The translations under genes and the position numbers were made by a program. A stretch of 64,000 nucleotides of DNA from Chitinophagales bacterium (lineage in GTDB: Bacteria; Bacteroidota; Bacteroidia; Chitinophagales; JAUHXS01): the NCBI GenBank assembly GCA_965213575.1, contig CBDBZN010000006.1, forward strand, positions 106,297 through 170,296, in the 5' to 3' direction. Below, piece by piece: positions 813-6,110 of the stretch. Under the pieces are notes generated by a model. The model was not told the origin of the DNA. It searched no databases and saw only the letters and a program-made list of their open reading frames with translations. The stretch's first letter is position 1. Each line of letters starts with the position of its first letter.

Positions 813-846
813 ATCATAGCCCCCGGTTTAAACCTTGGGCTATGTC
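813..846. repeat. REP-like imperfect palindrome, copy 1
   Basis: ATCATAGCCCCCGGTTTAAACCTTGGGCTATGTC; similar to 5321-5353 and 3667-3691. Confidence 0.7.
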
Positions 847-1628: not shown

Positions 1629-4600
1629 ATGGAGATAACCAGAATGAAACCAAGAAAGGCACTGAACAAAGCCTTTTTGAAAGTAAAACCGAACAGGACA
1701 GAAATCGAAGGTTTCAAGGTCAATCTCATCCAGTTACTCGACAGGACAAATGACACCGAATCCGAAGAGTTTCATAAAAACCTTGTCATTGACTTTCTCA
1801 AAAAGACATATTACGACCCAAACCATTTCATCAACACTAAAGGAAGAAACGACCTTGTAATCCATAACGGAGACAAAGCAAAAAGCACGGTTGGAGTAAT
1901 CATTGAAGCCAAAAAGCCGACCAACAAAAGCGAAATGGTGAAACCATTCGCTGAAGGCGATACACCTCAGCAAATGGTTTCTAAGCTGAACGCAAAGGCA
2001 TTTCAGGAATTGGTGCTTTACTACCTACGAGAGAGAATCACGCAAAACAACCTTGAAACCAAACATTTGATTATTACCAACATCAATGAATGGTTCATTT
2101 TTGACGCTACAACTTTTGACAGACTTTTTGCCCAAAACAACAAACTCGTTAAGCAATTTCAAGACTTTGAAGGTGGACGAATGGCAGACACCAAAACGGA
2201 TTTTTTCTACAAGCAAATTGCCGAGCCATTTATAGCAGACATCAAAACCGAAATTGAATTTACCTACTTCAATTTACAGGATTACCAGAAGCCTTTGCGA
2301 AATGATAACAAAGCAGACGACAATAAACTAATTGCTCTTTTTAAGCTCTTATCACCCGAACATCTTTTAAAACTTCCATTTACCAACGACAGCAACAGTC
2401 TTGATAAACGCTTTTATAGTGAGCTGCTGCACATTATCGGTTTGACAGAAACCAAAGAAGGTAATAAGAAACTGATTGAACGAAACAAAGCAGGTGAACG
2501 ACACACGGCAACAATCCTTGAAAATGCTATCATTCAGCTTGACAGTTTGGATAAAATCAGCCGATTGAAACGACCAAGCCAATACGGAAACACACAACAG
2601 GAAAAACTTTTTAATGTAGGTCTTGAACTATCCATCACTTGGATTAACAGAATCCTGTTTTTGAAATTGATGGAAGCCCAACTCATCACCTATCACAAAG
2701 GCGATAAACCTGCCCGTTCCGCAGGCGGGTCGTATTCGTTTCTCAACCTTGACAAGATTAAAAACTATGACGACCTAAATAGTCTATTTTTTCAGGTATT
2801 GGCACGGAAATCTGACGAGCGAAATGAAGACGTAATCACAGTTTTTGAGAAGGTTCCCTATCTCAATTCTTCCCTTTTTGAACCTACTGAAATGGAACAG
2901 GACACAATTTTTATCAGCAACCTGAGAGATGATAAAACCATTCCTATCATTTCGTCAACTGTGCTGAAAAACGAGCAAGGGAAGAAAAGAACAGGAAGTT
3001 TAACCACGCTTCAATACCTGTTTGAGTTTCTCAATGCTTACGATTTCAGTAGTGAAGGCTCGGAAGAAATTCAGGAAGAAAACAAATCACTTATTAATGC
3101 TTCCGTTCTCGGGTTGATATTCGAGAAAATAAACGGCTACAAAGACGGTTCATTTTTCACTCCGGGCTTCATCACCATGTATATGTGCCGTGAAACCATT
3201 CGCAAAGCTATTGTTCAGAAATTCAATGAAACTAAGAATTGGAAATGCAAAGACCTTGATGAACTTTACAACAAAATTGAAGACGCCAAAGAAGCCAATG
3301 AAATTGTAAACAGTCTGAAAATTTGTGACCCTGCGGTTGGTTCAGGACACTTTTTAGTTTCCGCCCTCAATGAAATGATTGCCGTTAAAAACGACTTAAA
3401 AATTTTGCAAGACCGAGACGGCAAACGCCTTAAAGAATATCAGGTGGAAGTGGTAAATGACGAATTGATCATCACGGATGAAGAAGGCGAACTTTTTGAA
3501 TACAATCCAAACAGCAAAGAAAGCCAACGCATTCAGGAAACACTTTTTCACGAAAAGCAAACCATCATTGAAAACTGTCTTTTCGGTGTAGACATCAATC
3601 CGAACTCTGTAAAAATTTGCCGTTTACGTTTGTGGATTGAGCTTTTGAAAAACGCCTATTACAAAACCCCCGATTTAAATCGGGGGCTATGGGCTCTTGA
3701 AACGCTTCCGAACATTGACATCAACATAAAATGCGGTAACTCCTTAGTGAGCCGTTTTGACATTGATGCTGACTTGAAACAAGCCTTGAAAAAAAGTAAG
3801 TGGTCGATTGACAGCTACCGAGTTGCCGTTGACACCTACCGAAATGCGGAAAGCAAGGAACAGAAAAGAGAAATGGAGAAACTGATTGCCGACATCAAAT
3901 CGGATTTCAGGAGTGAGATTTCTTTGAACGACCCAAAAGTTAAAAGGCTTCGCAAACTATCAGGCGAACTTTTTCAGATGACCCAACAACAGCAACTTTT
4001 TGAAATGTCCAAAAAGGAAAAGACCGCTTGGAACAAAAAAGTGGCTAAACTGACCCAAGACACCAAAAAGTTAGAAACTGAAATTGAAGAAATTAAAGCC
4101 AATAAGATTTTTGAGAACGCTTTTGAGTGGCGTTTCGAGTTTCCTGAAGTGCTAAATGATGAAGGCGATTTTGTGGGCTTTGATGTGGTGATTGGGAATC
4201 CGCCTTACGTTTTTGGTGGTAATGAAGGTATCTCTGAAAATGAAAAAATTTACTTCAAGAATAATTATCAAATTGGAAGTGGTAAGATTAATCTTTTTAC
4301 CCTCTTCATTGAAAAAGCATTTAATCTTTTAAAAAGTGCATCACAATTCGGTTTTATTATACCAAATACCTTTTTAAGAGTAACATCATACGATTCAACA
4401 AGAAGATACTTGCTTGATCATGCAAAGATTGACTCAATATATGACTTTGGTGATAGAGTTTTTGATGATGCAGTTACAACCGCAATAGTAATAACTGCCA
4501 CCAAAGGCAAATTTGAGGATTTCCAAACACGATTAATAAATGAATCAGATACAGGAGTTTTAAGTAAACAAGATATTATTGAAAATGAATTTGTAATTGC

Positions 4601-5297
4601 GATTAACCTTGACGTGCGCTCTCTGAAACTTGTAAAAAAACTGAAGACAAATATTTCTTTAGGCTCAATTTGCAAGGAAATGATTTTTGGAGTAGTGATT
4701 ACAAAAAATAAAGGTGAAGTTGTAAGTGACAAGCCAATAGAAGGTTGGAAACCCTTTTTGGAAGGCAAGGAAATTGGACCGTATTATATCCATGAAATCA
4801 AGCAATGGTTAAATTACGAACCAAAGTTACTCCACAGGGCAAGAAGTAAAGAGGTTTTTGAAGTCCGCGAAAAAATTGTAATTCAAAGAATTACTGGTGG
4901 TAACAAGCCGTTAAAAGCCGCATATGATAATCAAGGCCTCTACAATAAAGAATCCATAAACAATATTATTCTCAAATCAGACAGCCCAGTTCAAACCAAG
5001 TTTGTGTTAGCATTACTTAACTCAAGGCTGATTAATTGGTTTTATACAATTCAATTCACAAATGAATCAAATCTAACAGTGAATTTATCCAAAACCTATT
5101 TATCTCAAATACCGCTTGCAATACCGAATGAAAATGAGGAGAATCTAATCATTTCGGTAGCCAATGAAATTCTATCTATAAAAAAACAAAACCCTGCAAC
5201 TGATACAACTGCCCTTGAAAACCAAATCAATCAATTAGTTTATCAGCTTTACAACTTGACCGAAGAAGAAATTGAAATTGTAGAAGGAAATGGATGA
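1629..5297 (+). CDS. Type IIG restriction-modification enzyme (fused REase/N6-adenine MTase/TRD, Eco57I/TaqI-C-like)
   Basis: N-terminal PD-(D/E)xK-like RNDLVIH...IEAKK, motif I DPAVGSGHF, motif IV NPPY, C-terminal TRD ending ENQINQLVYQLYNLTEEEI. Confidence 0.92.
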   Translation: MEITRMKPRKALNKAFLKVKPNRTEIEGFKVNLIQLLDRTNDTESEEFHKNLVIDFLKKTYYDPNHFINTKGRNDLVIHNGDKAKSTVGVIIEAKKPTNKSEMVKPFAEGDTPQQMVSKLNAKAFQELVLYYLRERITQNNLETKHLIITNINEWFIFDATTFDRLFAQNNKLVKQFQDFEGGRMADTKTDFFYKQIAEPFIADIKTEIEFTYFNLQDYQKPLRNDNKADDNKLIALFKLLSPEHLLKLPFTNDSNSLDKRFYSELLHIIGLTETKEGNKKLIERNKAGERHTATILENAIIQLDSLDKISRLKRPSQYGNTQQEKLFNVGLELSITWINRILFLKLMEAQLITYHKGDKPARSAGGSYSFLNLDKIKNYDDLNSLFFQVLARKSDERNEDVITVFEKVPYLNSSLFEPTEMEQDTIFISNLRDDKTIPIISSTVLKNEQGKKRTGSLTTLQYLFEFLNAYDFSSEGSEEIQEENKSLINASVLGLIFEKINGYKDGSFFTPGFITMYMCRETIRKAIVQKFNETKNWKCKDLDELYNKIEDAKEANEIVNSLKICDPAVGSGHFLVSALNEMIAVKNDLKILQDRDGKRLKEYQVEVVNDELIITDEEGELFEYNPNSKESQRIQETLFHEKQTIIENCLFGVDINPNSVKICRLRLWIELLKNAYYKTPDLNRGLWALETLPNIDINIKCGNSLVSRFDIDADLKQALKKSKWSIDSYRVAVDTYRNAESKEQKREMEKLIADIKSDFRSEISLNDPKVKRLRKLSGELFQMTQQQQLFEMSKKEKTAWNKKVAKLTQDTKKLETEIEEIKANKIFENAFEWRFEFPEVLNDEGDFVGFDVVIGNPPYVFGGNEGISENEKIYFKNNYQIGSGKINLFTLFIEKAFNLLKSASQFGFIIPNTFLRVTSYDSTRRYLLDHAKIDSIYDFGDRVFDDAVTTAIVITATKGKFEDFQTRLINESDTGVLSKQDIIENEFVIAINLDVRSLKLVKKLKTNISLGSICKEMIFGVVITKNKGEVVSDKPIEGWKPFLEGKEIGPYYIHEIKQWLNYEPKLLHRARSKEVFEVREKIVIQRITGGNKPLKAAYDNQGLYNKESINNIILKSDSPVQTKFVLALLNSRLINWFYTIQFTNESNLTVNLSKTYLSQIPLAIPNENEENLIISVANEILSIKKQNPATDTTALENQINQLVYQLYNLTEEEIEIVEGNG
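1941..1980. repeat. Intragenic inverted repeat in RM gene
   Basis: AAACCATTcGCTGAAGG-CGATACA-CCTCAGCaAATGGTTT hairpin. Confidence 0.7.
2709..2729. repeat. 21-bp GC-rich imperfect palindrome, in frame, encoding PARSAGG
   Basis: CCTGCCCGTTCCGCAGGCGGG, exactly 7 codons, in an AT-rich gene. Confidence 0.7.
3667..3691. repeat. Intragenic REP-like palindrome in RM gene
   Basis: Perfect 20-bp palindrome CCCCCGATTTAAATCGGGGG followed by CTATG, as in the intergenic copies. Confidence 0.75.
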
Positions 5298-5320
5298 ATC
5301 CATTCAACGAATAATAGTAC

Positions 5321-5388
5321 ATCATAACCCACGGTTTAACCGTGGGCTATGATACAAAAACGGTAATTTTTAACCGTTTCAACGGTTT
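5321..5388. repeat. REP-like palindrome, copy 2, plus companion palindrome
   Basis: ATCATAACCCACGGTTTAACCGTGGGCTATGAT (5321-5353), then AACCGTTTCAACGGTT (5372-5387). Confidence 0.8.
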
Positions 5389-5420
5389 GTAAGAACATAG
5401 CGAATATTGAAATTTGAATT

Positions 5421-6110
5421 ATGCCAGAAGCCATAAATGAAATGGAGAAATTAATTGTTTTGATGAAATTTGGTGAAAAAGAACATATTGAAAACCTTTT
5501 TAATAAAGGCGAAATATTTTTTAACACCCCATTATCATATAGCGAATCTAGTGAGAGGGAAAGAGGTGATATTTATGAAGGAGCAGAATGGGTTGAAAAC
5601 GTTCAGCTTTCAGAAATTAGTTTTAATCATCCTAAAATAGGGGTTGGTAAATTAACTCCTGCAAAGAACTCACTTTCTAGATTAATTCAGTATAACACCT
5701 TTTTCTTATCCACAAGTTTCTATGCAATAACATCTAAAACTTTTGAAAACACAGACCAGCATCAAATCAATAAACGAATAGTTGATTTTAAAGGAGCTGA
5801 TGCTGCAATAATGATAAAAGACCCTATTCGATTTCTTAATTCCATTACTTCCAAACTAAAGGAAAATAGATTTCAATATGAAGCAAGAATTGTAAAGTAT
5901 AGAGATTTCAAGATAGGGGGTAGAGTTGATTTAACTCCTTTTGAAAAAGATATTGATTTCGTTCATCAATTGGAATTTAGAATTATCATAGAGAATAAGG
6001 AGAACAAGCCAAATAATAAAGTTTTTATTGACTCAATTGCTGAGTATAGCCTTATTTTAGATGCAAAATCCATGGTAGAATTAACTTGGAAGGTAAAGAG
6101 AAGACAGTGA
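5421..6110 (+). CDS. Hypothetical protein downstream of RM gene
   Basis: 229-aa ORF; KFG..EH...L...G.IFFN...RGD..EG and F.K...F.HQ.EFRI segments; no confident family. Confidence 0.7.
   Translation: MPEAINEMEKLIVLMKFGEKEHIENLFNKGEIFFNTPLSYSESSERERGDIYEGAEWVENVQLSEISFNHPKIGVGKLTPAKNSLSRLIQYNTFFLSTSFYAITSKTFENTDQHQINKRIVDFKGADAAIMIKDPIRFLNSITSKLKENRFQYEARIVKYRDFKIGGRVDLTPFEKDIDFVHQLEFRIIIENKENKPNNKVFIDSIAEYSLILDAKSMVELTWKVKRRQ

Follow-up and report, generated by a model that had tools for sequence, protein, structure and literature searches.

In-frame insertions of apparently different origin at three loops of a type IIG restriction-modification gene in a Chitinophagales bacterium

The subject of this report is a predicted type IIG restriction-modification gene in a 64,000-nucleotide (nt) stretch of a Chitinophagales genome (contig CBDBZN010000006.1 of assembly GCA_965213575.1, positions 106,297 to 170,296 of the forward strand), referred to here as the window. 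The gene carries three extra segments, E1, E2 and E3, at sites where most of its homologues are shorter. The preferred reading, to which a probability of roughly 0.7 can be given, is that an intact, mobile and mosaic type IIG gene has received three independent in-frame insertions in its loops: a repeat resembling repetitive extragenic palindromic (REP) sequences at E3, a dispersed 21-nt unit at E2, and the product of a replication template switch at E1. Positions are those of the window unless a contig or locus is named, and the features are collected in Table 1.

Protein and DNA comparisons agree on where the gene departs from its relatives. The protein alignment comprised the query and 119 homologues, the best 120 of 8000 scored candidates. 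A form longer by 11 residues at site 1 is present in 12 of these 120 proteins, with the query counted in; PARSAGG at site 2 is found in the query alone (1/120); and TPDLNRGLWA, which replaces the usual four residues at site 3, is likewise unique to the query, with some insert of at least four residues there in 12 of the 120. No further query-specific insert beyond the three sites was seen in this alignment. At the codon level, the DNA of 80 genomic loci was compared, with coverage of 71 loci at site 1, 78 at site 2, and 75 plus the query at site 3. The long form of site 1 is carried by 6 of the 71 covering loci, in addition to a longer variant in L081; the 21 nt of E2 recur, with one difference, in L049 alone (1/78); and site 3 has the standard length in 67 of the 76 covering rows. 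The net gains relative to most homologues are 33, 21 and 18 nt for E1, E2 and E3, respectively, all of which keep the open frame of the 1222-residue product. The proposal of an initial annotation of this DNA, made from its letters alone, that homologues would be shorter at exactly these three loops and that all three segments are in frame is thus upheld by both comparisons.

Folding was assessed by treating the segments as DNA and comparing them with 200 dinucleotide shuffles. By energy, E1 and E3 are real hairpins and the copy at E2 is not: none of the 200 shuffles was as good as E1 (z -4.8), and one of the 200 was as good as E3 (z -3.5). An inverted-repeat search returned the arms of E1 (15 nt, 93%) and the pair 3662-3679/3674-3691 in E3, and reported none at E2.

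E3, to judge from its sequence relatives, is a member of a REP-like, transposase-linked palindrome family, in which 30 nt stand in place of 12 nt of host sequence. A full-string search of the genome for the three segments at up to 6 mismatches gave no other copies and misses this family, which was reached through a shared tail, GGGCTATG. Its palindromes are centred on TTTAAA and have the ends CATAG...CTATG. Octamer and hairpin scans located 10 sites, nine of which are intergenic, most of them 1-109 nt beyond the 3' end of a gene; E3 is the sole genic one. A covariance model of 16 family members was then built with E3 left out, and its E-values are rough because calibration was short. E3 scored 27.5 bits against this model (E 8.5e-7 for the window and 3.5e-5 for the genome), and the next unrelated match reached 14.1 bits. 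Genome-wide, the model gives 11 sites, including a composite member with two partial hairpins (contig 28: 110727-110786) that it alone detected. Three of the 11 flank the gene of an IS200/IS605-type Y1 transposase of 143 residues on contig 37, which matches PF01797 with 88.9 bits and the NCBIfam model NF033573 for IS200 with 63.3 bits against a cut-off of 55; at this locus (L168) the open reading frame (ORF) occupies 1426-1857, and family palindromes lie at 1360-1427 and, on the other side, at 1893-1933 and 1950-1995. Three of the 11 sites fall within 4.6 kb around the restriction gene. One of these, E4, lies just past the stop codon. In L027 and L060 a hairpin of the same stem subtype likewise follows the homologous gene closely, so that this palindrome may move together with its gene; E4 is possibly the terminator of the gene or the edge of a transferred segment. 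Family members were identified in 4 of 100 other genomes of the order, with stems that differ by complementary changes, and none was found in the genome of the sister species.

E2, to judge from its distribution, is a slightly degenerate copy of a discrete unit dispersed through Bacteroidota. At up to 3 mismatches the 21-mer is present in 74 of 401 Bacteroidota genomes; one variant recurs exactly in many Bacteroidota genomes, with up to 7 copies per genome, and a reversed control yields far fewer matches. E2 keeps five of the six stem pairs of the family consensus (a 6-bp stem with a 5-nt loop), with an energy equal to that of shuffles. Thirty-three copies with at least 5/6 stem pairs were examined, nine of which are embedded, by 20 codons or more, in open frames of at least 300 codons; the remaining copies are intergenic and in many cases occupy the apex of a longer repeat. 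In the alanyl-tRNA synthetase gene (alaS) of another genome the unit forms an exact 7-residue gap against the orthologue of the present genome, and in the uroporphyrinogen decarboxylase gene (hemE) of another genome it lies inside a 9-residue gap against the present orthologue. The gap between the query and its 119 homologues is exactly 7 codons, with the same unit boundaries as in the alanyl-tRNA synthetase insert, and a 21-nt relative occupies site 3 of the restriction gene family in L083. The unit is 7 codons long and none of its six frames contains a stop, so that any coding sequence can accommodate it. In the present genome the copy in the gene is alone at up to 3 mismatches. As to the copy shared with L049, a recombination tract around E2 was considered and rejected, as identity to L049 in that region (90%) is no higher than to L005 (94%), which lacks E2; the shared copy may reflect either shared descent with short-tract recombination or independent insertion. 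Two candidate mobilisers were also tried in five E2-rich genomes and rejected, as a unit was found within 1.5 kb of 0 of 20 Y1 transposase genes and of 0 of 5 DUF559 genes. No description of the unit was found in the literature searched, in a non-exhaustive search.

Another in-frame 21-nt insert was observed four codons upstream of site 2 in L028, L049 and L083, where it has a short GC stem and encodes NSSRNGG, NSSRDIG or NSSSQGG. At the same spot L078 carries an unrelated insert of 8 residues.

E1 is not a dispersed element and is confined to this gene family, in which it occurs in about 10% of members and is patchy on the tree. No copies were found elsewhere in the genome at up to 6 mismatches, and 26 of 26 metagenome matches to a degenerate long-form pattern lie inside homologues of the restriction gene; its classification in the initial annotation as a third mobile family is not supported. 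The hairpin stands just 3' of the coding sequence for the E-x-K strand of the nuclease domain, and its anatomy is informative. The reverse complement of the left arm matches the adjacent host sequence D1 at 10 of 11 positions, with one 1-nt gap, and matches the right arm at 14 of 15, so that an 11-nt motif is encountered in the order direct, inverted, direct; D2 matches likewise to D1. The short form of site 1 has 6 nt (TD codons) that are missing in the long form. Because an arm is a reverse-complement copy of adjacent host sequence, E1 looks like the product of a local template switch that has been maintained since; template switching can both create and maintain hairpins, according to Monttinen and Loytynoja (2022, PMC8794818). 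The 12 long forms occupy six or more separate places among 107 short ones in a midpoint-rooted FastTree of the N-terminal 500 residues, built without the indel columns, and the deepest branches have the short form. Such patchiness in a mosaic gene fits a single origin of E1 followed by recombination.

Pairing in E1 was examined in 25 distinct long-form sequences, 6 from the query and genomic loci (including L025, whose stem is degenerate) and 19 from metagenomes; L081 was excluded due to its extra length. In the 16-pair stem, 90% of cells are paired, against 81% in shuffles (0/500 as good) and 26-46% with slid partners. Four stem pairs change on both sides: pair 22:55 is GC in 11 sequences, UA in 8 and CG in 5, and pair 32:45 shows four pair types. 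An alternative pairing of D1 with the E1 arm (columns 12-17 with 21-26) is present in 100% of cells of the same 25 sequences and also covaries, at 16:22, as CG (11), AU (8) and GC (6). When each of the 25 native sequences was compared with 300 synonymous recodings of itself, every one proved more stable than the recoding mean, and for 11 of them no more than 3 recodings did better, which implies that the pairing is held at the nucleotide level.

Table 1. Features of the restriction gene and its surroundings, in window coordinates.
Feature	Position	Strand	Description
E3-family member	815..844		Intergenic, upstream of the gene region, 109 nt past the preceding ORF; 47.2 bits
Type IIG gene	1629..5297	+	Predicted restriction endonuclease-methyltransferase; single open frame, 1222 aa
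D1	1929..1939	+	Host instance of the 11-nt motif found again in E1, first inverted and then direct; from arm comparison
E1	1940..1981	+	Hairpin, arms 1940-1954 and 1967-1981; encodes KPFAEGDTPQQMV; net +33 nt; from inverted repeat, folding and alignment
E2	2709..2729	+	21-nt GC-rich unit encoding PARSAGG; 2 differences from the family consensus of other Bacteroidota
E3	3662..3691		30-nt REP-like palindrome encoding TPDLNRGLWA; perfect 20-nt core 3667-3686
E4	5323..5351		E3-family member about 25 nt past the stop codon; z -6.1; covariance model 42.7 bits

The host gene itself meets the description of a type IIG enzyme, in which a nuclease, a gamma-class N6-adenine methylase and a specificity domain are predicted in a single polypeptide. 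Pfam domains cover residues 7-254 (DUF7149), 255-489 (DUF7814), 649-945 (Eco57I) and 1041-1163 (TaqI_C), and the PADLOC model REase_MTase_IIG matches residues 1-972 with 811.6 bits. In a 55-sequence alignment, D75, E93 and K95 of the N-terminal domain (1851-1913), the methylase motif I DPAVGSGHF (3327-3353) and NPPY (4197-4208) are invariant or nearly so, and all are present in the query. Because these conserved nuclease, motif I and NPPY residues are retained, the gene can be read as intact, with no sign that the inserts have cost it its function. An identity as the BREX protein PglX was not supported, as NCBIfam NF033452 gave 131 bits against a cut-off of 500. Since the PglX models fall far under their cut-offs and the neighbours of the gene are a DUF72 protein and two ORFs without a family, the enzyme is taken to be solitary.

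The gene also appears to be horizontally mobile and mosaic. Its orthologue was not found in the sister species, the sole other genome of the family, and its nucleotide identity to L049 changes along its length, from 59-69% over residues 1-250 to 79-91% over residues 251-850 and to low values in the specificity region; it is this variation by segment that marks it as a recombining mosaic. The genome of the present host comprises 2.67 Mb in 39 contigs, with 34% G+C, and is 91% complete. Metagenome relatives in two other sequencing runs have the short form at site 1 and are shorter by 18 nt at site 3.

A predicted structure was used to place the sites in the protein (AlphaFold model of residues 1-800, with a mean predicted local distance difference test score, pLDDT, of 72). 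Site 1 lies between the strand 88-94, which includes E93-x-K95, and the helix 113-120, with a mean pLDDT of about 83 over 101-120. Site 2 is found in the coil 356-379, which follows a long helix (323-355) and has a pLDDT below 50. A sequence search of the PDB gave matches confined to the methylase core, from residue 850 onward, and a Foldseek search of the 800-residue model against the PDB gave no match at E <=0.001, with DrdV, BrxX, MmeI and BpuSI as weak top rows. The loop at site 3 is variable across the family, and homologues carry at least five other kinds of insert there, including solo GC-rich hairpins in L058 and L060. Several of these inserts fold no better than mononucleotide shuffles. 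In P0008, P0013 and L041 (~3530-4040) a whole DUF559 nuclease domain (PF04480/PF18741) of about 160 residues stands in frame in this loop of the methylase domain; it lacks start and stop codons of its own, and GC-rich hairpins mark its borders. The present genome, at 91% completeness, gave no DUF559 match.

These observations can be assembled into an account with a separate route for each insert. E3 would have been inserted as a single-stranded DNA hairpin by a Y1 (HUH) enzyme of the IS200/IS605 type, and it would have survived because the exchange of 12 nt for 30 nt took place in a turn that tolerates it. For E2, entry in an earlier host of the gene is probable, or else arrival by recombination. 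For E1, the anatomy suggests a single template switch during replication, in which the neighbouring 11-nt motif was copied into the gene first inverted and then direct; the insert would then have spread among alleles by recombination, and its hairpin may have been kept paired either by selection on nucleic-acid structure or by repeated template-switch correction. All three inserts would be translated as extra loops.

Several points weigh against this account. Each mechanism in it is inferred, and the whole rests on sequences rather than on an observed transposition event. E3 is the most divergent member of its own family; this family has 11 sites only, where classical REPs reach hundreds of copies, with the head ATAG in 13 of 16 aligned members rather than GT(A/G)G, and the transposase that it flanks falls short of the model for REP-associated tyrosine transposases (RAYTs), NF047646 REP_Tyr_transpos, with 29.8 bits against a cut-off of 80. 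The turn that holds site 3, between predicted strands 678-681 and 688-691, was modelled with low confidence because the methylase domain was cut at residue 800. E2 has no significant hairpin by energy (z -0.05, with 96 of 200 shuffles as good), and it is left with no candidate mobiliser, since no unit lies near the Y1 or DUF559 genes. Three looser E2-like units with 4-5 mismatches are present in the present genome, against none in the control, so that E2 could have been inserted in the present host after all; one match at 4-5 mismatches lies beside a tRNA-like sequence and was taken for chance. With regard to E1, the three stem classes are probably clades, which leaves few independent compensatory events (about 8 by pair types), and the shuffle control overstates significance for related sequences. 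Moreover, 19 of the 25 sequences were retrieved by a pattern that fixes some stem columns, the covarying ones excepted, and the polarity of the indel depends on a midpoint-rooted FastTree of recombining sequences.

The initial annotation had pictured three hairpins from three different mobile families, in the manner of Rickettsia palindromic elements (RPEs), that had all struck this gene and would map to surface loops. What survives of this picture differs between the inserts. By energy, hairpin formation is significant for E1 and E3 and not for this copy of E2. E2 and E3 are copies of different dispersed repeats and E1 is not dispersed, as the genome-wide counts also indicate (11 sites for the E3 family, no other copy of E1, and E2 alone at up to 3 mismatches). 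Because E2 and E3 both copy dispersed hairpin repeat families, the comparison with RPEs can be retained for these two and is not supported for E1. One gene does carry three inserts; they need not have struck it in its present host, given its mosaic make-up and its absence from the sister species. All three sites fit loops of the predicted structure, and this placement is firm for site 1 alone.

The most ambitious of the alternatives, which is considered rather unlikely, is that E1 is a functional nucleic-acid element with two alternative, selected pairings that tune expression or help it to spread by biased conversion, and that travelling defence genes collect in-frame hairpin 'stamps' from their hosts, with the 21-nt unit as one apparently undescribed, phylum-wide family that is also found in essential genes. 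If this were true, the host history of a gene could be read from its hairpin inserts. A related and somewhat less probable possibility is that selection retains the hairpins as cis-acting signals, such as terminators or attenuators within the gene, places of RNase action or pausing, or a pairing switch at E1, which would tune the expression of a potentially self-toxic enzyme, their origin as repeats being secondary. The compensatory changes in the E1 stem, the alternative pairing of the upstream copy with the same arm in 100% of cells, and the greater stability of E1 relative to synonymous recodings all agree with such a role, as does the position of most checked relatives of E3 no more than about 100 nt from gene 3' ends, which is terminator territory. 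However, E1 is missing from about 90% of the homologues, and E2 and E3 from nearly all, so that none of them is needed for the enzyme; Rfam returned no family match and nothing near a gathering score; and template switching alone can maintain stems (PMC8794818).

It is improbable that the three segments reflect ordinary, lineage-specific changes of loop length in a defence protein that evolves fast, with coincidental hairpins and repeat likeness. In its favour, length variation is common among the loops of this family, above all in the C-terminal specificity region, E2 is no more stable than its shuffles, and the peptide pattern of E1 is conserved in about 10% of homologues. Nevertheless, this explanation is already largely refuted for E2 and E3, as E3 was detected by a model that lacks it (E 8.5e-7, over a background of 14 bits) and the 21-nt unit of E2 turns up, with identical boundaries, both in unrelated genes and between genes in many genomes; for E1 it is opposed by the compensatory pair changes and by a codon choice that favours pairing. 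Equally hard to sustain is the view that the insert at site 3 is the footprint of a lost, hairpin-ended element that carried DUF559. Such domains with GC-rich hairpin borders do occur in frame at the same loop in three relatives, and the solo hairpins of L058 and L060 resemble those ends, but E3 matches the TTTAAA-centred family of its own genome rather than the hairpins that flank DUF559 genes, and its genome, 91% complete, yielded no DUF559 match. The least credible explanation is a mis-assembly that introduced the palindromic segments: palindromes can confuse assemblers and E3 is unique to this record, yet the whole of 1629-5400 is reproduced, with neither a difference nor a gap, in a 21-kb contig assembled independently from a public run, which probably shares its source data with the present record. 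E1 and E2 are also known from records of other organisms, and all three segments are in frame.

Under the preferred account of three independent loop insertions, E3 and E2 can be compared with intragenic REPs. According to Di Nocera et al. (2013, PMC3733652), repeats tagged with GTAG or CGTC are mostly intergenic and near gene 3' ends, with a minority wholly inside ORFs for known proteins; some genes are hit twice at different sites, and many hosts are DNA-handling enzymes. E3 fits this description, and E2 fits it in behaviour. The differences from it are that E3 has the head ATAG and belongs to a family of 11 sites; that the host here is a restriction-modification gene; that E2 lacks an unpaired terminal GTAG/CGTC tag, with CGTC in its loop and a stem of 6 bp rather than 8-9 bp; and that one of the three inserts, E1, is not a member of a repeat family. 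Nunvar et al. (2010, PMC2817692) give a REP copy number that usually exceeds 100 per genome and place the origin of RAYTs within the gammaproteobacteria. The E3 family resembles the REP/RAYT arrangement outlined there in its Y1 transposase gene flanked by palindromes that are also dispersed singly, and in the complementary variation of its stems. It has the 20-40 bp palindromes, the dispersal, the mostly extragenic location and the flanked tyrosine transposase gene of a REP/RAYT system, and it lacks the more than 100 copies, the RAYT-specific protein score and the GT(A/G)G head that are given in that account. In contrast with REP/RAYT systems, its transposase passes the IS200 model and fails the RAYT cut-off, and its host belongs to the phylum Bacteroidota. 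The orientation of the palindromes that flank the transposase is unreadable because they are perfect.

The resemblance to RPEs is one of behaviour only. These elements, of roughly 100-150 nt, were reportedly presented by Ogata and co-workers in 2000 as palindromic selfish DNA, of several families in a single genome, that enters numerous genes in frame and is translated into surface loops; the units described here measure 21-39 nt and have different sources and probably different hosts. In the mitochondria of yeasts, GC clusters and translational-bypass elements are small hairpins that invade the coding sequences of AT-rich genomes, sometimes beside mobile endonuclease genes. Unlike these, the present inserts are in frame and stop-free, so that bypass is not needed. 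Translational bypass of E1 was nonetheless considered and set aside, as the insert has neither a stop nor a frameshift, and its Ile class pairs ATA with ATT, which are read by different tRNAs and argue against matched take-off and landing codons. The closest parallel to E1 is the template switching described in PMC8794818, where the reverse-complement copying of neighbouring sequence forms a perfect stem in one event and its pairing can be repaired later; this fits both the anatomy of E1 and its multi-base compensatory changes. In contrast with the RNA genes treated there, E1 is part of a protein-coding region, to which it contributes 11 residues, and its presence varies across a gene family that is exchanged horizontally.

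In-frame insertion of REPs and RPEs has already been published, and what is added here is a restriction-modification host, an orphan 21-nt unit and a conserved coding hairpin of local origin, the last of which is the least expected part. One gene would document three routes by which hairpin DNA enters coding sequence and persists there, through a palindrome linked to a transposase, through an orphan unit of 21 nt, and through a hairpin made by template switching. The orphan unit could be a tractable target in the search for a new mobility mechanism, and E1, as a rare clear case of stem covariation inside a protein-coding region, could serve to separate selection on structure from template-switch repair. 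For annotators and enzyme engineers, the three sites point to loops in which enzymes of this family accept 6-170 additional residues.

Some other features of the genome were noted in passing. In the window, a 229-residue ORF without a Pfam or PADLOC match lies directly 3' of the restriction gene (5421-6110). A second palindrome family, with arms of the CCCTTCAAGGG type, has at least seven copies (contig 12: 52226-54265, and contigs 7, 13, 16 and 37), one of which (contig 12: 52543-52577) lies inside an open frame of 219 codons. About 8.5 kb before the window, on contig 6, a 205-residue ORF resembles Y1 transposases (L169:1384-2001; PF01797, 36.5 bits). On contig 16, a 41-nt perfect palindrome with a 19-bp stem (155291-155331; L170:1451-1491) stands in frame and is read as LDSPGDLKSPGES; its host is a Y1-transposase-like ORF of 207 residues, which is preceded, about 115 nt upstream, by a related palindrome.

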